NCBI GenBank assembly: GCA_048941285.1
Contig: JBHLNS010000003.1
Location: forward strand, 1-64,000
Length of the DNA stretch: 64,000 nt
From: Promethearchaeota archaeon
GTDB taxonomy: Archaea > Asgardarchaeota > Lokiarchaeia > Sigyniarchaeales > SOKP01
Direction: 5' to 3'
Shown: one piece after another, positions 6,752 through 41,600 of the stretch
Layout: the number at the start of each line of letters is the position of its first letter
How positions within the stretch are numbered: the first letter of the stretch is position 1
Notes under the pieces: model-generated
Databases searched by the model: none
What the model was told of the DNA's origin: nothing
Seen by the model: only the letters and a program-made list of their open reading frames with translations
Made by a program: the position numbers and the translations under genes

Positions 6752-7975
6752 GTGAAGAAAAGATATTTAGTGATACTCCCAATCTTAATATTAGTAGAAA
6801 TTTTAAGTGTTATTAATTTAGTAAATGCTTTTGATTGTAATCTAATATGTCTAAACACAAATAAAACCAAATATTATAGAGATGAATTTGTTAAAATAAA
6901 TGCCTCTTGGATTATGAATTACGATGATAAAACAGAAATTGCTTATACCCAAATTCATATAACGGATTTTTTTGATAATTTTGTTTGGAATTCATCAAAA
7001 TACTACCAAATTGGATTACATCAAGGGAATTGGACTGTAAATTTCGAAGATTTGAATTTAAGTATAGAAAATTCATCCCATATTCTTTTTATAAAATTTT
7101 TTGTATCTTTTTTTCATATTGATACTTCAAGTACAATGTGTTATTATCTTGAAACAATAGAAATTAGAGTTATGAAAAGAAATATATCATGTGAATTAAT
7201 TGGATATAAGGATCAGATAAAAGTAGGCGAAGATTTATCTTTAATAGCTAAATTTTATAGTAAATTTTCTGAACATAATCAATTATTAATTAATCAGACA
7301 ATAGACTTTATGGTTTCTTTTAATGATTTAATTATATATCAAAAAAATTATATGACAAATTCATCGGGTGTTATTCAGATTTACCTGATTTCACTCAAGC
7401 ATTTAAAGCTTGGGAAGAATATTTTAACTTTTTCAATCACAAATAACAATTTATATAATGATTCAAAATTTGTATATGAAATTTACGTCGATAAATACGA
7501 CTTAGTCATTGAAGTTGTTGATTTTAATAATAGAATAGAAATTGATGAAGATTTGGACATAAAATTATCTCTCCATTATAATATTAATCAATCAGATATA
7601 ATTTTAGTAAATTATAAAATATTGATAAAGATTTTTGATAATAAATCATTAACATTCATCAATGAATATTGGACTGATAAATCTGGAGTTTTAGAAATCT
7701 CAATTTCTCAAAATTCCTTTAATTATAATCAAGAGATAAAAGATTTCATCATTAAAATTTTTTTAAATGAATCAAATTATTTTAATAATGAAACTTTAAT
7801 ATTGAATCTTGATGTACATCAAAATATTTATTCAAAAATATTAAATTCATTTCAAATGAAAATTTTTTCTTTTACGTCAATTCTTATTGCCATTCTAATA
7901 TTTCTCTCATATATAATCATTAACAAAAAAAGTAAAAATGAAAAAGCGCTTACCGAATTGATCATTAGATATTAG
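6752..7975 (+). CDS. Secreted/membrane-anchored protein with Ig-like repeats
   Basis: N-terminal signal peptide, repeated TNSSGV/TDKSGV beta-rich units, C-terminal TM helix plus basic tail. Confidence 0.7.
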   Translation: MKKRYLVILPILILVEILSVINLVNAFDCNLICLNTNKTKYYRDEFVKINASWIMNYDDKTEIAYTQIHITDFFDNFVWNSSKYYQIGLHQGNWTVNFEDLNLSIENSSHILFIKFFVSFFHIDTSSTMCYYLETIEIRVMKRNISCELIGYKDQIKVGEDLSLIAKFYSKFSEHNQLLINQTIDFMVSFNDLIIYQKNYMTNSSGVIQIYLISLKHLKLGKNILTFSITNNNLYNDSKFVYEIYVDKYDLVIEVVDFNNRIEIDEDLDIKLSLHYNINQSDIILVNYKILIKIFDNKSLTFINEYWTDKSGVLEISISQNSFNYNQEIKDFIIKIFLNESNYFNNETLILNLDVHQNIYSKILNSFQMKIFSFTSILIAILIFLSYIIINKKSKNEKALTELIIRY

Positions 7976-31366: not shown

Positions 31367-33013
31367 ATGAAATGGGAGATCTCAGATTTTGATGCTTTAG
31401 GAAGAATTGGTAAATTAAATGTAAATAACAAACAAATGACTACCCCCAATTTATTTCCTGTAGTTCATCCATATAAAAACGCTATTTCAACTTCAGATTT
31501 CAAGAAGATCGGAGCTCAATGTGTCTTTACAAATGCATATATTATTTATCAGAATCCTCAAGTCCGTGAGGAAATTTTAAGAAAAGGTTTACATTCGCAT
31601 TTAAAATTCGATGGAATAACGGCTACTGATAGTGGTGCTTTTCAAAAGTACATGTATAATAAAGAGAAATTGGATATTCAAGCGGTAGATATAGAAAAGT
31701 TTCAAGAAGATATCGGTACGGATTTTGCTGTAATTTTAGATGAACCTGTCCAACCTGATGATGATTATGATATCGCTAAAAAGAAAATTGAAATCACTTT
31801 AAATAGGGCTAAAGATAACATTAATAGAAGAATTAAAGACAACTGCCACTGGTTTGGCCCAATTCACGGCGCTAAATTTGATGATTTATTAAAAACAAGT
31901 GCAATTGAAATGGGTAAATTAGATTTTGGAGTTTATGCGATAGGGGGTTTAGTTAAATCACTTTTAGACTATAGATTTGATTTAGTGATTAAAATTCTTC
32001 TGAATGTTAAAAAAGATATAGTATGGAATAAACCCATTCACATGTTTGGATTGGGTTTACCTCAATTCTTTTCCTTAGCTATTGCATGTGGTTGCGATTT
32101 AATGGATTCCGCTGCATACATTTTATTTGCAAAAGAAAACAGATATTTCACTTTATCTACAGGAACGAGGAAATTAGATGAATTGGAAGAGTTTCCTTGT
32201 CATTGCCCTATATGTTGTGAATATAACCCTAAGGAAGTGTTAAATTTCGATGAAAGTTTGCGAACTCAGCTACTTGCTAAACATAATTTATACTTATCTT
32301 TTTCAGAGTTAAGAACAATTCGACAAGCGATTAAAGAAGGTAACTTATGGGAACTTGTTGAACAACGGATTAGAAATCACCCAGCACTAGTAAAAGCGTC
32401 AAAATTGATTAAACACTATTTAATATTATTTGAAGAACATGAAAAATTGTATAAAACGCACGGTAGGTTATATTCCTCTCCAGAGAGCGTAGAAAGACCG
32501 CTTATTTATCGCTATGAGAAAAAATTATTATATAATTATAGAGTTCCAAAAGATGCAAAATTTTTAATTATATTGCCTGAATTAGATATAAAGGGAGAAA
32601 AATCTCCAAGCATTAAATATTGGTTAGAAAAAATTAATAATAACTCAATAATCCCTAGAAAATTTATTCACGTAGCATTTTTTTCTGATATTTATGGAAT
32701 TATACCATTTGAACTTAGCTCATCTTTCCCTATGGGACAATATGAATCAATAGATCTATCAAATGAAAATGATATAATATATCAAAATTTCATGCAAAAA
32801 GTAGATCTCTTCTTTAAGAATTATTTCCAATATTATTCAAAATGTGGGATAATAATTCCTGAAGAATTTGTTAATCAATTTAATGAGACTGTTCATTTTT
32901 CTAAAAAAAATCTCTTAAATAATATAGTTGATAAATTTAAATCTAAATACAAACTAGAGATTACTATAAGTAATGAAGTGGACTCCCTCCTTAATTTCTT
33001 TAAAAGTGATTAA
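31367..33013 (+). CDS. tgtA: Archaeosine tRNA-guanine(15) transglycosylase
   Basis: TPNLFPVV, TDSGAFQ, GPIHG, AIGG, HMFG, GCDLMDSAAY, CHCPIC, HNL; no obvious PUA domain. Confidence 0.95.
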   Translation: MKWEISDFDALGRIGKLNVNNKQMTTPNLFPVVHPYKNAISTSDFKKIGAQCVFTNAYIIYQNPQVREEILRKGLHSHLKFDGITATDSGAFQKYMYNKEKLDIQAVDIEKFQEDIGTDFAVILDEPVQPDDDYDIAKKKIEITLNRAKDNINRRIKDNCHWFGPIHGAKFDDLLKTSAIEMGKLDFGVYAIGGLVKSLLDYRFDLVIKILLNVKKDIVWNKPIHMFGLGLPQFFSLAIACGCDLMDSAAYILFAKENRYFTLSTGTRKLDELEEFPCHCPICCEYNPKEVLNFDESLRTQLLAKHNLYLSFSELRTIRQAIKEGNLWELVEQRIRNHPALVKASKLIKHYLILFEEHEKLYKTHGRLYSSPESVERPLIYRYEKKLLYNYRVPKDAKFLIILPELDIKGEKSPSIKYWLEKINNNSIIPRKFIHVAFFSDIYGIIPFELSSSFPMGQYESIDLSNENDIIYQNFMQKVDLFFKNYFQYYSKCGIIIPEEFVNQFNETVHFSKKNLLNNIVDKFKSKYKLEITISNEVDSLLNFFKSD

Positions 33014-33451
33014 ATGAGAACTTTAGAAAAGATTTACGCTTTTGGCCATGAAAATATCTTAAGCACTCATAAAACAACGATAGAACTTACAAAAGCTAAG
33101 TCATTAACAAAGAGAGGGAATTGCATAATAGGGATTAACGCTACAAAAGCTTGTTTTGATTTAAATTCTATTTTGAAAGAAAAAATAAACAATGGAAAAA
33201 AAGTAAAGGTCATATTAGAAGTAGATGATCTCCAAGACTCCTTCCATGGTTTTGGAAATAAAAATTTAAGATTATTAGATAAAGATGATATAGTATTTCG
33301 TAAAAGTGGTCATATATGTAATAGAACTGTACTTATTAACTGTTCAAAATCATCAAACGATATTAATCGTGAATTAATTGAAAAGCTAAAAGTTCCAGGA
33401 AAAAAATTATCAATAATATTTGAGATGAATGAGACAGATGGATATCAATAA
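33014..33451 (+). CDS. DUF371 family protein
   Basis: GHENILSTHKTTIELTK...LTKRGNCIIG...VFRKS...RT. Confidence 0.9.
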   Translation: MRTLEKIYAFGHENILSTHKTTIELTKAKSLTKRGNCIIGINATKACFDLNSILKEKINNGKKVKVILEVDDLQDSFHGFGNKNLRLLDKDDIVFRKSGHICNRTVLINCSKSSNDINRELIEKLKVPGKKLSIIFEMNETDGYQ

Positions 33452-34598
33452 TAAGCAAGAAATTACCTATATTAAATTGAATAAGAAAGATGGACAGCGT
33501 TTCATTGATTTCATAAAAAAGAATTTTAAAAAGATTCAAATTATTAATCACAAATTTAAAATATTATATGAAAATGATTACATTTTATATCCAATAATAC
33601 CAAACCAAGAGTTACTCGAAAAAGTGAAGAATTTAATAGATAAATTAATTATTTTTGAATTGAATTCTCAAGTAGGAATACCTAATGAATATTATAAATT
33701 TAGAACACTTCGAGAAGCTTTGGAAGGTAAAATTCTAAATGAATATTTAGATTTACTTCCAAAATCATATGATATTATCGGAGATATAGTTGTAGTCGAG
33801 CTTGATAAATTCCCTCAATTATATGGTGAAGAATTTTATAATTTCAAGGATAAAATTGCGAAGGCGATAGTTGATGTCAATGATTATATTAAAACAGTAT
33901 ATGAAAAAAGAAGTGAAATAAAAGGAAAATACCGCTTAAGAGAATTAGCTCTTTTGTATGGTGAGAATAAATCTGAAACGGTTCATAAAGAAAATGGTTG
34001 TTTTTTCAAACTTGACGTTAAGGATACATATTTTACTCCAAGATTGGTTTTTGAAAGACGAAGGGTTGGTTCAAGTGGGATAAAAGAGACTGAGTTGATT
34101 ATTGATATGTTTGCTGGAGTTGGAACATTCTCAATCCAAATCGCGAAAAATAAAAATGTTAAAATTTATGCTTTTGATATAAATCCTGAAGCATATAGGT
34201 ATTTGAAAGAAAATATTAATCTCAATAAACTTAAGGGAGAAATTTTCGCAAATAATATTGATATTAAAAATCTCCTCAATCCTAAAAACGATTTAGGAAA
34301 AAGGTTAATGAATAAAGCAGATAGGATTATAATGAATTTACCTGAAAGTTCAATCAAATTTATAGATGTAGCTTGCTTCTTAATGAAAGAATCTGGAGGA
34401 ATATTACATTTTTACCGATTCTCTGACAAACCAAATCCAATAGAAAAGACTTTATCGGATCTTGAAAGTGAACTTAGTCTTTATAATTGGGAGATTGAAT
34501 CTATTATGACTTCTAGGATTGTAAAGCATTACTCACCTAAATCTGAATTAGTTGTCATAGATGTGAAAATAAAAGGTCAAAATAAGATGCGGGCCTAG
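33429..34598 (+). CDS. trm5: tRNA (guanine37-N1)-methyltransferase, Trm5 family
   Basis: SYDIIGDI, HKENGC, YFTPRL..ER, DMFAGVG, DINPEAY, RIIMNLP. Confidence 0.93.
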   Translation: MRQMDINNKQEITYIKLNKKDGQRFIDFIKKNFKKIQIINHKFKILYENDYILYPIIPNQELLEKVKNLIDKLIIFELNSQVGIPNEYYKFRTLREALEGKILNEYLDLLPKSYDIIGDIVVVELDKFPQLYGEEFYNFKDKIAKAIVDVNDYIKTVYEKRSEIKGKYRLRELALLYGENKSETVHKENGCFFKLDVKDTYFTPRLVFERRRVGSSGIKETELIIDMFAGVGTFSIQIAKNKNVKIYAFDINPEAYRYLKENINLNKLKGEIFANNIDIKNLLNPKNDLGKRLMNKADRIIMNLPESSIKFIDVACFLMKESGGILHFYRFSDKPNPIEKTLSDLESELSLYNWEIESIMTSRIVKHYSPKSELVVIDVKIKGQNKMRA

Positions 34599-35090: not shown

Positions 35091-35228
35091 TTACTTCTTA
35101 TCAATACTGGGCTGAGATTTATCAATTGAATAGTCAAATGGCGTACCACACATAGGACATAAATCTTTTTTGAATGAAATTTCAAAATCTATACATAATC
35201 TACAATTAGGACATCTAATTAATTTCAT
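35091..35228 (-). CDS. Micro CPxCG Zn-ribbon protein (45 aa; not in ORF track)
   Basis: MKLIRCPNCRLCIDFEISFKKDLCPMCGTPFDYSIDKSQPSIDKK*. Confidence 0.7.
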   Translation of the reverse strand: MKLIRCPNCRLCIDFEISFKKDLCPMCGTPFDYSIDKSQPSIDKK

Positions 35229-35331: not shown

Positions 35332-36627
35332 ATGCTTACTTACAAAAAGATAGAGAAAAAATCTAAAAGGGAAAATATTCAAGATACGATTAAAAAAACA
35401 AAAAGTAGATCAAACAATTATGTTGTATTCTCATTGGTTTATTTCATCATTAGTTTGATTCAAATCTACGTTCTTGTTTACATCCCTTTATTTCATTTCG
35501 ATGTTTTAAATGTAGATAGATCCAGCTTATCTTTAGTACAGAGTTTATCATATCTTGTTTTGTTTTCCTTTCCCGCTTTGGGATTATTTTTTGATAAATA
35601 TTCAAAATATAAGAATAAGATAATTGTTTCATTCAGTTTTGTCCTATCTTTAAGTTTTTTAATGTTTATTATATATAATCAATTTCTTCTCAGTTATGCC
35701 ATATTTTTAGTTCTATTTCTGATTAGTCAAGCAGTAATAAGAACTGGAATGTCAAAACTACTTTTAGAATCTACTGATAAAAAGAGCGAAAGAAATCTAA
35801 TTATATTAATCAATTCCTGCTCCTCAATAGGGATATTACTCTCTTCATTTCTCTTCAAATTTTGTGTTAAAGAAATTGAATCTTTAGATTTTTGGAATAT
35901 TTTCTTTGTAGTAGGATGGTTAATAACTTCCCCCTTATTAATTATTTTTATTTTTATGAGAAAAACCTCTTTAAAAGAACCATATCAAGAAACCCCTAAT
36001 GAAATTCTTGAAAAAGAAGATTATTTTAAGCTTTTTTCACCTTTAATAATAACTCTTATATTTTTGGCTTATTATTTTTTATGGGGTGATAAATTAATGT
36101 CATATCCTTTCAGTTCTTACATTCTATCCAGATTTGGGCAGATAGGTTTTACTCTATATTCAGATTTTTACGTAATTTTTACTCTTTTTAACATAATGGG
36201 TTATTATCTAGCAAAGCGAATCCTAAACAAAATAAATTTCAACGAAAATCCAACTATTAATCAAAACAAAAAGTTATTTCAGATTATTATTTTTCTAACG
36301 GTAATCTATATGGTTAGTTTAATTCTATTGCTTTTTTCAAACATAATAATTCTACTAATTACATATTCCTTTATTTACTTCTTAGGTGGATTGTTTGTAG
36401 TACTTTACATAACTCTTTTTCTCCAAATCTCCAGGACTAAAAAAAATCAAAATTTCATCTATTGGTTAATGTCATTGTCTTCTAATTTGGCTAGCATTAC
36501 TCTTATACCACTTGGTACGCTGTTGTCTCAATATGTACAAATGGAGATCTTAATTATTATGGTTATTTCATTAACATCCCTATCGATTATATTCATTTTT
36601 TTGTTAAAATTTTCTATCATGCTATAG
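35332..36627 (+). CDS. MFS transporter
   Basis: About 12 TM helices in two halves, motif-A-like GLFFDKYSK. Confidence 0.82.
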   Translation: MLTYKKIEKKSKRENIQDTIKKTKSRSNNYVVFSLVYFIISLIQIYVLVYIPLFHFDVLNVDRSSLSLVQSLSYLVLFSFPALGLFFDKYSKYKNKIIVSFSFVLSLSFLMFIIYNQFLLSYAIFLVLFLISQAVIRTGMSKLLLESTDKKSERNLIILINSCSSIGILLSSFLFKFCVKEIESLDFWNIFFVVGWLITSPLLIIFIFMRKTSLKEPYQETPNEILEKEDYFKLFSPLIITLIFLAYYFLWGDKLMSYPFSSYILSRFGQIGFTLYSDFYVIFTLFNIMGYYLAKRILNKINFNENPTINQNKKLFQIIIFLTVIYMVSLILLLFSNIIILLITYSFIYFLGGLFVVLYITLFLQISRTKKNQNFIYWLMSLSSNLASITLIPLGTLLSQYVQMEILIIMVISLTSLSIIFIFLLKFSIML

Positions 36628-36718
36628 AATTTTAATCAACTTTAAAATCCATTTAGAATTTTTTTTAAATGTAATTATCCCTTTGCATCTTAAGTGAGAA
36701 TGAAATATGCTTTTATGA

Positions 36719-38332
36719 TTATTTTTTCATAAAATAATTGTATCCTTGAATAAATTCTGTTTTATTAAAATCTCTTAAGGAGTCTTCTTTATTTTTTATG
36801 TTGTAATAATCAGGATTTTTTTTTGAAAATTGAGCTTCAAATACTTTTAAAAAGAAATTATATATTTTTCTGTAAAGCTCTTTAATTTTAAGATTCTTAC
36901 TTGGATCTACATATATTGCTTTAAAATATTGGTCATCATCATATCTTTTCCACCAATTAGGATAATAAATCGTTGCTCCATAATTATTTTCTCCATTTAG
37001 ATATGATTCTGAATTGGGATATGCCACATATTTATTAAATTTTAAATATATTTGATATTTTTCTATTAAAGAGCTTCCATTGACTCTCTTTTTCAAGAAA
37101 AAATCAAAATTTTCTCTTAATGTCATTTTATCTTCTCCTGGAACTCCAAATAAGATATTAAAGTATGGCATCATTCTCAATTTTGACATAACCTTTATAA
37201 TATGCATTGATTTTTTTAAATAATAATTGATATTATCATCTTGTTGTTTTATTGAATTACCTAGCAATTTACCCATTCTAAGGAGCATTTTTTTAGATCC
37301 TGACTCAAAACCAAAGTATGGTGTTACATTCGCTTTCTTGTAATACTCTGCCATCTTTAATGGAAACATATCTATACGTTCTGCTACCCAAAATACAGTA
37401 AAATTATTAGTTAAGATTTTTCTATTTTTCTCTAACTCATTTAAGAATTTTAATTTTAGTGATTTTTTTGGTATAAAAAGTTCATCAGAAATGTATAAAA
37501 AATTATTTTTATTCCATTCCATATCATTTAGGATTTTGATTTCTTTAATACTCCTTTCTATAGATTTAAATCGTATTAATGAAGGCATTACTTTATTTCC
37601 AAGAGAATTTGGGCAATAACTACATTTAAAATAACACCCTCTTGACAGATCTAACCAATAAACTAATCGTTGCTCCCTGTTAAAGTCCTTTTTATAATTA
37701 CTTATCAAATCCAAATTAATTATAGGAAGATCGTTAAGATTTTCAATATATTCAGATTGCAGAACATTATATTCACTTTTTGTTTTATTTAATAGAGAAT
37801 CTTTTGAAGAACGCAATATTTCATTAACAAATTTGTAAAATGGGATCTCCCCTTCACCTAAAACTAAGTAATCTATAATATTGATGGATTTCTTCTGTAG
37901 GGATTCCTTGATCTCAATTGGCATATTTGGAGTTTGAAAATCTTCTGGACAAGACGAAACATGTGCACCTCCAACAATAATAAGAATTGATTTGTTTATC
38001 TCCTGTTTTATAATCGAAGCTATTTCCAAAGTACTAAGATAGCAGTAAGAACTATAACAAGAAATTGCAATAATATCAAAATTAAATTCATTATATGTTT
38101 TTTCTATTTGTTTTTTTAAAGCTGGTCTATAGTTATTAATATCAGTAGGATTTATTTCCGATATTCGCTCAAAACGTAAATCTAAGTATTTTTCTTCTAT
38201 TTTCGACAACAAATTTTTACTATTCAAAAAATTTGATATTCGACAGAAGTATGTGAGTATCGGTTTTGGTGATTTCCCCCACGTTTCATTAGGATAAATA
38301 TATAAAATTTTTAACTTCATATTAATGCCCAT
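36719..38332 (-). CDS. Cobalamin-dependent radical SAM enzyme
   Basis: B12-binding region (DIIAISC, IIVGGAHVS, DYLVLGEGE), SRGCYFKCSYC (CxxxCxxC), GFESGS, FGVPGE. Confidence 0.92.
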   Translation of the reverse strand: MGINMKLKILYIYPNETWGKSPKPILTYFCRISNFLNSKNLLSKIEEKYLDLRFERISEINPTDINNYRPALKKQIEKTYNEFNFDIIAISCYSSYCYLSTLEIASIIKQEINKSILIIVGGAHVSSCPEDFQTPNMPIEIKESLQKKSINIIDYLVLGEGEIPFYKFVNEILRSSKDSLLNKTKSEYNVLQSEYIENLNDLPIINLDLISNYKKDFNREQRLVYWLDLSRGCYFKCSYCPNSLGNKVMPSLIRFKSIERSIKEIKILNDMEWNKNNFLYISDELFIPKKSLKLKFLNELEKNRKILTNNFTVFWVAERIDMFPLKMAEYYKKANVTPYFGFESGSKKMLLRMGKLLGNSIKQQDDNINYYLKKSMHIIKVMSKLRMMPYFNILFGVPGEDKMTLRENFDFFLKKRVNGSSLIEKYQIYLKFNKYVAYPNSESYLNGENNYGATIYYPNWWKRYDDDQYFKAIYVDPSKNLKIKELYRKIYNFFLKVFEAQFSKKNPDYYNIKNKEDSLRDFNKTEFIQGYNYFMKK

Positions 38333-38473
38333 ATTTTAATATTTTATTTAAAATAATCAAATTTATTATATGAAAGTCCTTATAAATCTGCTTAATACTA
38401 TTATTGTCTAGCTTGCTTTTTATACTCCACATAAAATAATCTCTTTAAAGAGATTTATTAGTTTTTAATTAGC

Positions 38474-38515
38474 AAAAAAAGAAATAGAATGTAAATGTCA
38501 ATAAAGACTTTACAT
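38474..38515 (-). terminator. Hairpin plus U-tract directly after the micro-ORF
   Basis: Minus strand ATGTAAAGTC-TTTATT-GAC(A)TTTACAT followed by TCTATTTCTTTTTTT. Confidence 0.5.
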
Positions 38516-38542
38516 AACAGGCCAATCCTCATAACCAGGCAT
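38510..38542 (-). CDS. 10-aa micro-ORF MPGYEDWPVM (candidate RiPP precursor or leader peptide)
   Basis: AGTGAT-ATG start context identical to the MFS gene, TATA-like TTTAAAAAA 23-31 nt upstream, locally GC-richer than flanks, co-oriented upstream of the radical SAM gene. Confidence 0.5.
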   Translation of the reverse strand: MPGYEDWPVM

Positions 38543-38616
38543 ATCACTATTATTCTTTAGTAACTTTTTTAAACTAAACTAAAAATTAAAATTGTTTAAT
38601 GAGTGATTTAAAAATT

Positions 38617-41600
38617 CTAGAATCCCTCTGCACTTCTATACAAAAGATCCGGATAAATTTTTTCAAATTTTTTTGTAAAAATTTTGTGATTCATCCAAAT
38701 CTTGTCCTTATTATTCCATTTAAGATTAATTAGTGGATTATAAGTATCTAAAAATTTTAGACTCCCATAAATTTCTTTTAAGAGATTCATACCATTAACT
38801 AAATCTGTTAAAATAATGTAATATTTGATTTCTAAATACTCAAATAATAAGTTAAATAATTTAAGGAATTCATCAAGCTCGCATTGAGGAAAATATAACT
38901 TAATCATTAAACCGTTTTCAAATTTAATTTCTTTATTAAATCCGTAGATATAAAATTCTCCTGCTATTTCATAAATAAATCCATAATTGAAAAAGTTAAA
39001 AATATTTATAATCGTTTGATTCAATCCTGCTTTCACATTAGGTAAAATTATATAGATTTTATCTTGAAAACCTAAATTCTTTATTGAAATGTAAGGAAAT
39101 ATTAAGTTCTTTTTAAGCAACTCAGAAAAATTTTTGACCATTAAATATTTCTGCGTTCCTAAAAATGACTTTATATCCAATGATTTCCATGAATAAATTT
39201 CAGTTAATGCTTGAAAATAAAAAGAGTAGGGGTTAAATTGATCTGGTATTGATGAAGGGTCAATATTAAATTGATTTAATTTAATCGATTCACGTTGATA
39301 AAGCTGATTAAAAAGTATATTTTGCATATATATTTTAAAATGATTTGAATCATAATTCCAGCCATTAGGCTTTAGGTTGTGATTAAAATTGAGAATTTGA
39401 TAAACACGCTTAATGAAAAATAGGCAATATTCTTTAATTATACGTTTAGTTTTTGTATACCAATTAAGATGTTTCATATTAGGATTACCATGAGGGAAAA
39501 TATATTTAATTAAAAAAGAGTTTGTATGATCAATATTAGTAGGATATTTAATGGATTGAAAAGTATTGATTAGGAGATGTTTAAAATCTATTTCGTCTAC
39601 ATTAGAAGGGTGTATATACAAAAAGAATTGATTTAATTTAAATGCTTGAAAGTTCGGAATAAATTTAATAGATTTAATATAAGTTTTAAAAAAAGGAGCT
39701 TGTTTTAAATCCTTAAACTTTTCTGTGTTAAGAAGACTCACTGTGAGATTTTCATTGAGGGTTCTCAACTCATTTAATCTATTTAGATTGAAATCTGGTT
39801 GCTCATATGAAATACGATTATCTACGGCTTTTATTAGATTGAAAATATTACTTTCTTTTGACCAAAATTTATCTTGAGACGTAAATTTTAGTACTGGCAA
39901 TGATTCAAATGATTCTCCTAAAAGATTTTGTATATAAAGAAAAATTTGTTCAAATAAATCTCTAGTATAGAAAAACTCGCCTTTATCAAAATCATAAAAA
40001 TCTTTAATTAACACAAAAGGTACTAGACCACTTGTAAAATATCTTTTAAAACTGATAAGATCTTTATTAAAAATATTATAAAGAATCGAGGTTAGCATTT
40101 CCTTTTCTTTAATATTCAGAAAATATATAAATAGAATAATATAGGAATCGTTGTTGAAAGAATTTCGTACTCTATCTAATAATACTCTCGGAAAAAATCT
40201 AATGATTTTTTCTAATTGGATATTTACATTAAGTGTATCTTTCAATAGCAGAATTGGATGATATTTAGCAAAAGTACTTGTAATTATTGTCTTAATTAAT
40301 CCGGGTATAATTAAATCTGTTTCAATAAATCTTTTAAATATGGAATCTAGTTTTTGATTTGTGATTTTATATGGCTTAAATTTCTCAAAAGATGCCTTTA
40401 GTTTCTTTTCCTTTGTGTAATAAATTTTTTCTGGAAATTCTTCATTATTAACAATTTCTTTCATTGAATCAAGGTTAAAAATCTTAAGTTTCTTACAAGA
40501 ACTAAAGAAATTAAAAAAATAGTAATATTTCTGTTTTAATACTGTAAATTTTTCAAAATTTCTAAAATAATGGTGAAAAAAATCTCGAAATACTATTTTT
40601 TGAATATCTTTATTTTTGAGATATAAATTCTCTTCAATCGATTGAGATATTTTGTGTCTTTTCATAAATTCTTGTAATTTATTTAAGTTATTAATTTCAG
40701 GATATTGTCTAATTACATTTTCAATTAAATCCAAATATACTAATGTTTGTTGGAGCGTATCCTCTATATAAAAAAATCCAAACTTTTGATTAGTTTCCAA
40801 AAAATCTAATAATTCCTTTCTTAATTTTGGATCTTCATAGAATATATTAAGAGAAGATTTTAAGTTTGAAATTAATAATCTCTCACTTTCAATATAATTT
40901 AACAACTCATCTTTAATAGATTGAAGTGTTTCTACTCTCTGTTCAAATCCGAAACCTGTGAGGCTGGTTTGCCTAGCCCTTTCAAAAATAACCCAATCCA
41001 GCAGATTTAATCTAATCAATCTTTGAGGTTTACCATAATAGCTAGTAAATTTAAGTTCAAGACGATTATCATAATCTTTATGATTTGGATTTATGATCTT
41101 ATTTAGTCCTTTTAGGTATTCTCTAAAATAATTCAAATTTATAAAGTTGTTATACTCTAACCAAATATAACAATCCGTATTGGTAATGTATCCATGCATT
41201 TTTAATTTTTCAATTAATTTCTCCAAGTCTTTTAGATAAATTCTAGGTATTACAACTAAATTAAATACTTCTGTTGAAAAGCCGTTTCTTACAAAAACAG
41301 GATTATGCAAAAATGGGATTTTATCTATGATATTAGAAATATCATTTTGATTTAGAATAGGGTGGAACTTTAGAATCGAGATTAACAAAGCAATATCTAG
41401 TTTGTGAAAATCTACATGAAATGATGGAGAAATTATTGTATACTTGTTAATCCAACGCAGATTTTCACTAAATTTTCTTTTGCTTAAATCAGTGGAAAAA
41501 AGTCCTTCTTCTTTAAACTTTTGAAAATAATCTTCAAATTCGATGTATTTTTTAAATAATTTTACTTGATCAAAAATTTTAATAAGAATTCTAATAGTCT

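Follow-up and report, generated by a model that had tools for sequence, protein, structure and literature searches.

A 64,000-nucleotide stretch of contig JBHLNS010000003.1 from a Promethearchaeota archaeon (GenBank assembly GCA_048941285.1), here called the window, contains a minus-strand open reading frame (ORF) of only ten codons. This micro-ORF is located between the genes for a radical S-adenosylmethionine (SAM) enzyme and for a 1204-residue protein that we refer to as BIG. Comparison with related genomes shows that the micro-ORF is a genuine peptide gene and is conserved. It belongs to a conserved cassette composed of a leaderless micropeptide gene, a gene for a major facilitator superfamily (MFS) transporter, and the gene for BIG, a giant Lrp-like protein. 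The original prediction had described a system resembling those of peptides made on the ribosome and modified after translation (RiPPs), built on the peptide, the radical SAM enzyme, and the transporter. The peptide gene and its MFS neighbour stand, but the radical SAM enzyme is, on the same comparative grounds, an optional extra rather than the core of the system.

The micro-ORF and its transcription signals

The features predicted around the micro-ORF are all present (Table 1). The ORF is preceded by a TATA-like box, is followed by a hairpin and a T-tract, and has a higher GC content (0.42–0.45) than its flanks (0.12–0.18, 33-nt windows). In-frame stop codons are found close upstream. The spacing between the box and the start codon implies a leaderless or near-leaderless transcript. 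The micro-gene is predicted to have a transcript of its own, a leaderless mRNA of ~80 nt with a TATA box ~30 nt upstream and an end at the hairpin and T-tract. The AGTGAT-ATG context, which had been noted as common to the starts of the micro-ORF and the MFS gene, is observed in the window but is not kept in orthologous micro-ORFs, and we treat it as chance.

Table 1. Coordinates of the cassette and of the elements around the micro-ORF in the window.
Feature	Position	Strand	Basis or remarks
MFS transporter, 431 aa	35332..36627	+	Pfam MFS_1 PF07690, 54.6 bits (cut-off 33.4), residues 34-389
Class-B (cobalamin-binding) radical SAM enzyme, 537 aa	36719..38332	-	between micro-gene and MFS gene
T-tract ATTCTATTTCTTTTTTT after hairpin	38490..38474	-	sequence read
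Predicted terminator of the short transcript (hairpin + T-tract)	38515..38474	-	fold and conservation in orthologues
Hairpin overlapping the micro-ORF stop codon	38515..38489	-	fold of spacer segment
Micro-ORF, 10 codons + TAA (ATG start)	38542..38510	-	sequence read; member of the Met-Pro micropeptide family
TATA-like box TTTAAAAAA	38573..38565	-	-31 to -23 relative to the micro-ORF ATG
BIG, 1204 aa	38617..42231	-	directly upstream of micro-gene; protease-like N-terminal domain and repeated Lrp/AsnC-like modules

As the original prediction had cautioned, an ORF of this size may arise by chance. Five ATG ORFs of at least eight codons occur on the two strands of the 374-nt stretch around it, so that the presence of the micro-ORF alone is not above chance and its significance derives from conservation only. 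The spacer has no second copy in the same genome, and its RNA folding energy is ordinary relative to shuffled sequences (z = 0.13). A scan of positions 38200-38800 against Rfam returned no family and one chance-level match (E 9.1). We also considered a 36-aa ORF at 38322..38432 on the minus strand, overlapping the start of the radical SAM gene, as an alternative precursor; it was rejected, having no counterpart except in L028, a contig from the same species.

Conservation of the micropeptide gene

Orthologous loci were found by two routes in a genus set of 54 species genomes, to which the count of 29 micro-ORF loci given below refers. A covariance-model match identified an element in G026 (contig C607) with a promoter and a terminator nearly identical to those of the window. 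As in the window, its ORF, of 11 codons, begins with M-P-G, carries a Glu at the centre, and ends in P-[I/V]-M; a G-E motif is present in addition. Tracing the closest relatives of the window BIG (61–68% identity) yielded four more loci, in G003, G028, G023, and G072, where the gene order is BIG, micro-ORF(s), and a convergent MFS gene (67–79% identity to that of the window). With G026 included, an MFS orthologue (66–79% identity) follows the micro-ORF directly in all five genomes.

The orthologous micro-ORFs span 8–11 codons, with two copies in each of G003 and G028, and differ by in-frame indels. The lengths of these type-B orthologues are 8, 8, 9, 10, 10, 11, and 11 (two copies) codons, all differences being whole codons, and M-P-[G/A], a Glu in the middle, and a Pro near the end are retained in the peptides. 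An (A/G)GTTTAAAA box is located at the same distance from the start in loci L094, L103, L104, L105, and L106. The hairpin persists even though both of its arms have changed, and a near-invariant ATTCTATTT..TTTTT comes after it. At shorter range, a metagenome contig 97% identical to the window is invariant from promoter to terminator, micro-ORF included, and none of the strain differences listed, which come from the contigs of four public runs, falls in 38445-38598. In locus L103 (G003), a duplicated C-terminal fragment of BIG (at 500-810 of the locus) lies between two identical micro-ORF copies, which suggests a tandem duplication of a unit made of the BIG end and the peptide gene.

The micro-ORFs form part of a wider family of peptides of 8–14 residues, all starting with Met-Pro (MP) and usually carrying Gly-Glu or Glu in mid-peptide. 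Members have a TATA box at about -30 or, where the promoter is further upstream, a GGAGG-type Shine-Dalgarno site 6–9 nt before the start. The only GTG start co-occurs with such a site. An nhmmer profile of the type-A elements described below, as well as covariance model R1, missed the window's own element; the element is joined to the family via the G026 orthologue and the BIG-guided loci only.

Comparison of copies within genomes indicates selection on the peptide. In G027, 3 of 30 bases distinguish the two copies, each change being synonymous, while the flanks match at 38/63 and 34/65 positions. Across seven paralogue pairs, the ORFs are 96–100% identical versus 50–75% in most 60-nt flanks (81–85% for one pair). 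The pair at L024 (G015) shows the reverse pattern, with flanks 93% and 87% identical, an ORF identity of 80%, and four residue changes, which looks like diversifying change of the peptide.

An exact nine-codon pattern had ten matches in the 54 genomes, one of them inside a longer ORF, versus one match for a reversed control. A covariance model comprising ORF and hairpin detected 26 elements in 18 of the 54 genomes, of which one is degenerate and one is, in our judgement, the tail of a longer ORF. A motif-based detector gave 41 matches in 0.40 Mb of loci versus 51, apparently random, in the 3.55-Mb genome of the window.

Start, frame, stop, promoter, and terminator are conserved across six species and the wider family, supporting our assignment of the micro-ORF as a gene and making a chance ORF in an AT-rich spacer hardly credible, despite the five ORFs counted in the same 374 nt. 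The whole-codon indels, the synonymous changes, the Shine-Dalgarno or leaderless starts, and the ORFs kept against diverged flanks bear out the peptide gene that had been predicted, and these comparative signs of coding point to a ribosomal precursor as expected of a RiPP.

The same observations bear on the possibility that the element is regulatory, acting as a leader peptide or an attenuator of the gene that follows, or as a small non-coding or antisense RNA directed at the mRNA of the convergent MFS gene. A short ORF with a terminator-like hairpin ahead of the radical SAM gene, a hairpin sequence conserved with changes on both arms, and transcription convergent with the MFS gene would all suit such a role. 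However, in the five orthologous loci and in most others the element is not followed by a co-directional gene, and some copies sit between convergent genes. Shine-Dalgarno sites, whole-codon indels, and synonymous-only changes indicate a translated, selected peptide, and the lack of an Rfam match and the ordinary folding energy also argue against such a role. We consider a regulatory element very improbable.

A cassette of peptide gene, transporter, and BIG

In the genus set we count 29 loci with an MP-type micro-ORF. An MFS gene adjoins 24 of them, confirming the transporter as a regular neighbour, BIG adjoins 26 (plus one fragment), and the radical SAM gene adjoins 6. BIG, which had no place in the original prediction, is therefore the most constant partner, directly upstream of the micro-ORF. 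The radical SAM gene is absent from all five of the closest orthologous loci, where the micro-ORF terminator lies ~70–190 nt from the MFS stop codon. These adjacency counts define a core of peptide gene, MFS gene, and BIG, to which the radical SAM gene is an addition.

The BIG family is multi-copy, with matches in 48 of the 54 genomes and up to five in each. Among 31 further BIG loci, seven have an MFS gene and six of those seven an MP micro-ORF; no MP micro-ORF was seen in the 24 BIG loci lacking an MFS gene. A scan based on Shine-Dalgarno sites in 22 BIG loci without MFS gave two weak matches, judged spurious, although leaderless genes escape a scan of this kind.

One family micro-ORF (L100, contig C30 of G027), with its own Shine-Dalgarno site and hairpin, is located away from BIG and MFS genes, beside a HypF-like gene. 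This solitary copy implies that the mini-gene can move on its own.

In the window, the MFS gene is convergent with both the micro-gene and the radical SAM gene, in agreement with the predicted arrangement. A sequence search of the PDB with the transporter gave no usable match.

The BIG protein

An AlphaFold2 model of BIG (pLDDT 80, pTM 0.78) shows modules composed of a winged helix and a RAM domain, placed after an N-terminal domain without a zinc motif. Residues 207-769 match NirDL, a siroheme decarboxylase in which two Lrp/AsnC-like units are fused, with Z 14.6 over 302/309 residues (VIA-align). Many regulators of the Lrp/AsnC family match with Z 6–7 over ~140/150 residues (VIA-align), among them AsnC, Lrp, and ST1022 with Z 6.5–7. 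In the model, the succession of a winged helix and a beta-alpha-beta-beta-alpha-beta RAM domain that characterizes Lrp/AsnC proteins is thus predicted for BIG at the level of fold only. A search of the ESM Atlas provided only a weak lead (0.82).

The N-terminus of BIG shows middling similarity (Z 6–8) to small zinc peptidases and aminopeptidase domains. At the motif position, Asn is found in 32 of 34 family members, mostly within N-Q-x-x-[E/L/M], and HExxH in none.

The radical SAM enzyme

As predicted, the gene downstream of the micro-ORF encodes a cobalamin-dependent radical SAM enzyme. The protein scores above the Pfam cut-offs for the B12-binding (PF02310, 36.8 versus 32.1) and Radical_SAM (PF04055, 34.8 versus 29.5) families. 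The CxxxCxxC cysteines C233, C237, and C240 are invariant in 25 homologues, and the combination of an N-terminal B12-binding domain with a radical SAM core carrying this motif identifies it as a class-B enzyme. Its AlphaFold2 model (pLDDT 86) matches MgmA, OxsB, TsrM, TokK, AprD4, and CysS in Foldseek, all with E ~1e-13 to 1e-14, and structures 6wtf and 9ccb are among the matches. In structure it comes closest to a peptidyl-glutamine C-methylase, with which other class-B enzymes tie.

Family assignment goes no further than the class. Among curated NCBIfam subfamilies none was reached (best score 51.5 versus a cut-off of 251), including the RiPP C-methyltransferase family TIGR03975 (31 versus 281.85) and the MgmA family TIGR04014. 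PDB sequence searches with the enzyme and with its family profile gave nothing usable, the profile matching no solved chain. The genome holds no second match to the enzyme at E 1e-20.

Homologues of the enzyme (35–39% identity) are present in 8 of the 54 species genomes, and 39 further loci were collected from metagenomes and Promethearchaeota metagenome-assembled genomes (MAGs). In the ten loci of a type-A clade, a convergent MFS gene of 408 aa flanks every radical SAM gene. In all ten, the radical SAM gene is preceded, and sometimes followed, by one to three copies of an ORF of 8–9 codons with the pattern M-P-x-x-G-E-x-x-x. These ORFs have a TTTAAA box ~30 nt upstream and a conserved hairpin and T-tract downstream; of 18 elements detected, 16 are intact, one is degenerate, and one is only partly aligned. 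In four loci, extra peptide genes abut the stop codon of the radical SAM gene. Conserved-looking reverse-strand ORFs upstream of the type-A genes were also considered as candidates, and proved to be the antisense of the micro-ORF element.

In a type-C clade of three loci, a different, longer peptide ORF occupies the same place upstream of the radical SAM gene (3/3). The type-C peptide (L027 of G064, 7080-7190; L038; L066) has a hydrophobic N-terminal part, a Gly/Trp-rich C-terminal core, and a Pro end, and up to three copies of its gene are found in L066. In other Promethearchaeota MAGs, the same enzyme family occurs as a fused double enzyme of 1080 aa and as tandem pairs (L049, 3959-7201; L037, 2425-5674), in loci without BIG, MFS, or an MP micro-ORF. 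The prediction that conserved micro-ORFs would precede homologous radical SAM genes thus applies to the type-A loci, but not to 18 other homologue loci, as discussed below.

All eight radical SAM matches of the genus are located in cassettes, except where the contig is too short to judge. Within cassettes, the gene is invariably flanked by the peptide gene on one side and by the MFS gene on the other, and in the window species it adjoins the micro-gene in two strains from two public studies. The best tree places the type-A, type-C, and window enzymes apart, in three positions. Either repeated recruitment or long retention of the enzyme would suggest a functional tie to the peptide. In the genome of the window, the radical SAM enzyme probably tailors the peptide, as its gene position suggests.

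Such a tie would not extend to dependence. In a strict RiPP pathway, the peptide would exist as the substrate of the B12-dependent enzyme, the enzyme would be an essential maturase, and the MFS transporter would export the modified product. The layout of precursor, hairpin, enzyme, and exporter, the ORFs upstream of every type-A and type-C gene, and a class-B fold like that of MgmA and TsrM are what such a pathway would lead one to expect. However, selection has maintained the peptide gene in the five closest orthologous loci, which lack the enzyme; moreover, the enzyme occurs in only 6 of the 29 loci, and its own genome shows no second match to it at E 1e-20. We regard this strict form as decidedly improbable.

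A further possibility is that the enzyme is a passenger with an independent function in a permissive gap, acting on an MFS-borne small molecule, a lipid, or a protein residue, while the cassette works without it. The large majority of cassettes (23/29) lack the gene, the window MFS is nested in the tree among relatives from loci without it, and the enzyme has a promoter-like box of its own. This would agree with the 18 homologues from different contexts, tandem or fused pairs in some cases, and with the nearest NCBIfam matches, among which are P-methylases, a lipid enzyme, and a protein methylase, each scoring far under its cut-off. The position of the genus homologues, always between peptide and MFS genes in cassettes, the three separate places of enzyme-bearing cassettes in the best tree, and the peptide genes abutting the radical SAM stop codon speak against a mere passenger. 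We hold this explanation to be doubtful, though it deserves serious consideration.

Proposed working of the cassette

Our preferred reading, which we advance tentatively, is that the micropeptide, MFS, and BIG form a functional unit whose peptide is exported as a signal or product and, in this genome, is tailored by the radical SAM enzyme. The peptide would be made without a leader, and removal of Met would expose an N-terminal Pro. The MFS transporter would then export the peptide, which may be a signal or product sensed by the Lrp-like protein BIG. Here and in a minority of related cassettes, the class-B radical SAM enzyme may alter the peptide before export, by C-methylation or another radical change.

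Several observations weigh against this reading. No transcript, peptide, or peptide modification has been observed, among 20 public runs no RNA run was listed as holding the sequence, and for the MFS as peptide exporter we infer the direction of transport. No member of the BIG family (0/34) has a Pfam helix-turn-helix or Lrp match (HTH_AsnC-type, AsnC_trans_reg) at E values up to 0.1, or a Pfam match of any kind. The absence of the radical SAM gene from 23 of the 29 micro-ORF loci, the five closest orthologous loci included, implies that the peptide does not need the enzyme, and no feature of the peptides separates type-B loci with the enzyme from those lacking it. Conversely, no MP micro-ORF was found at the 18 other radical SAM homologue loci outside the cassette. 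By an approximately unbiased (AU) test, one clade joining the window enzyme with type A is not rejected (p 0.09). By eye, the radical SAM gene has its own TATA-like box, and co-transcription with the micro-gene is not needed. The branch of the window enzyme is also very long, at 1.53 changes per site, and 9 of its 20 strain differences among those listed are non-synonymous (6/17 codons relative to L028), so that the constraint on the enzyme may be relaxed.

In a more far-reaching version, the cassettes would mediate cell-to-cell signalling in Asgard archaea through leaderless peptides of 8–11 residues with an N-terminal Pro. The peptides would be exported by a dedicated MFS transporter and read by BIG, a giant protein composed of a dead protease domain and several Lrp-like modules, with the radical SAM enzyme privatising the signal in some lineages, like diverging bacterial pherotypes. 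We consider this extension unlikely.

Comparison with known peptide systems

In its layout, the cassette resembles microcin C clusters, and it also resembles the leaderless peptide systems of Firmicutes; it is a member of neither. The microcin C cluster comprises the mccA heptapeptide gene, a hairpin, MccB, and the MFS pump MccC. Microcin C-type clusters, with their mccA heptapeptide gene, serve here as a layout analogue (PMC4231749). Like them, the cassette has a leaderless peptide gene of fewer than 12 codons, followed by a hairpin that would give a short abundant transcript, then by the gene of a tailoring enzyme, with an MFS exporter in the cluster. In contrast, Pfam detects no MccB/ThiF-like adenylyltransferase among the neighbours, and the peptides do not end in Asn/Asp. 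Furthermore, the enzyme is an optional class-B radical SAM protein, the cassette includes a giant Lrp-like protein, and the host is archaeal.

A second parallel is offered by the leaderless communication peptides that act with RopB-clan (RRNPP) receptors in Firmicutes (PMC10518010). In both cases, the neighbour of a very short leaderless peptide gene encodes a large cytoplasmic regulator-like protein, the peptide diversifies jointly with its partner, and a genome may hold several cassettes. The partner here is Lrp/AsnC-like rather than a combination of helix-turn-helix and tetratricopeptide repeat (TPR) domains, and there is a linked MFS gene. Pro, Gly, and Glu abound in the peptides, which are not hydrophobic as those of Firmicutes are, and the archaeal cassettes are known from genes alone. 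In a check of BIG as an RRNPP/RopB-type receptor, its structural matches were Lrp/AsnC-like and not TPR, and Pfam listed no family for it, which does not by itself exclude one.

In the quorum-sensing-linked RaS-RiPPs of streptococci, such as streptide, the genes of a short peptide, a radical SAM enzyme, and a transporter likewise stand together, with a link to a regulator that senses peptides. Their enzymes are of the SPASM type and not cobalamin-dependent, their precursors have leaders, and the sensing and modified peptides come from different genes.

Cobalamin-dependent radical SAM C-methyltransferases act in the RiPP pathways of bottromycin, polytheonamide, and thiostrepton (TsrM), and MgmA is a protein methylase. 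The window enzyme has the class-B fold of this group, as the Foldseek matches to MgmA, TsrM, TokK, and OxsB show. The peptide here is much smaller, the surroundings contain neither a YcaO enzyme nor a protease or any other tailoring gene, and the enzyme reaches no curated subfamily and matches no solved chain by family profile. The ORF of ten codons, with in-frame stops close upstream, shows no leader or follower of a classical RiPP, and Pfam detects no protease family among the eight neighbouring ORFs, as had been noted originally. Leaderless exceptions are known among RiPPs, and the bottromycin precursor likewise has no N-terminal leader, so that a missing leader and protease do not exclude a RiPP-like working.

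Asgard archaea are the closest prokaryotic relatives of eukaryotes. The literature searched contained no peptide signal or ribosomal peptide product of this group and no description of the cassette. A conserved, multi-copy cassette combining an unannotated gene of 8–11 codons, a transporter, and a 1200-residue protein of a ligand-binding type would provide a first handle on Asgard peptide biology. If the peptide is modified, the version bearing the radical SAM enzyme could establish a class of substrates new to class-B enzymes. The micro-ORFs also represent a whole gene family of fewer than 15 codons that is missed by gene callers.

Neighbouring genes

A trio of tRNA-modification genes, encoding an archaeosine-type TGT, a DUF371 protein, and Trm5/TYW2, is located at 31367-34598 on the plus strand of the window. 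The trio accompanies the cassette in several relatives, in varying orientation, an association that looks like synteny rather than common function. The 733-nt gap between Trm5/TYW2 and the MFS gene contains, on the minus strand (35091-35228), an ORF of 45 aa with two CxxC pairs that resembles a zinc ribbon.

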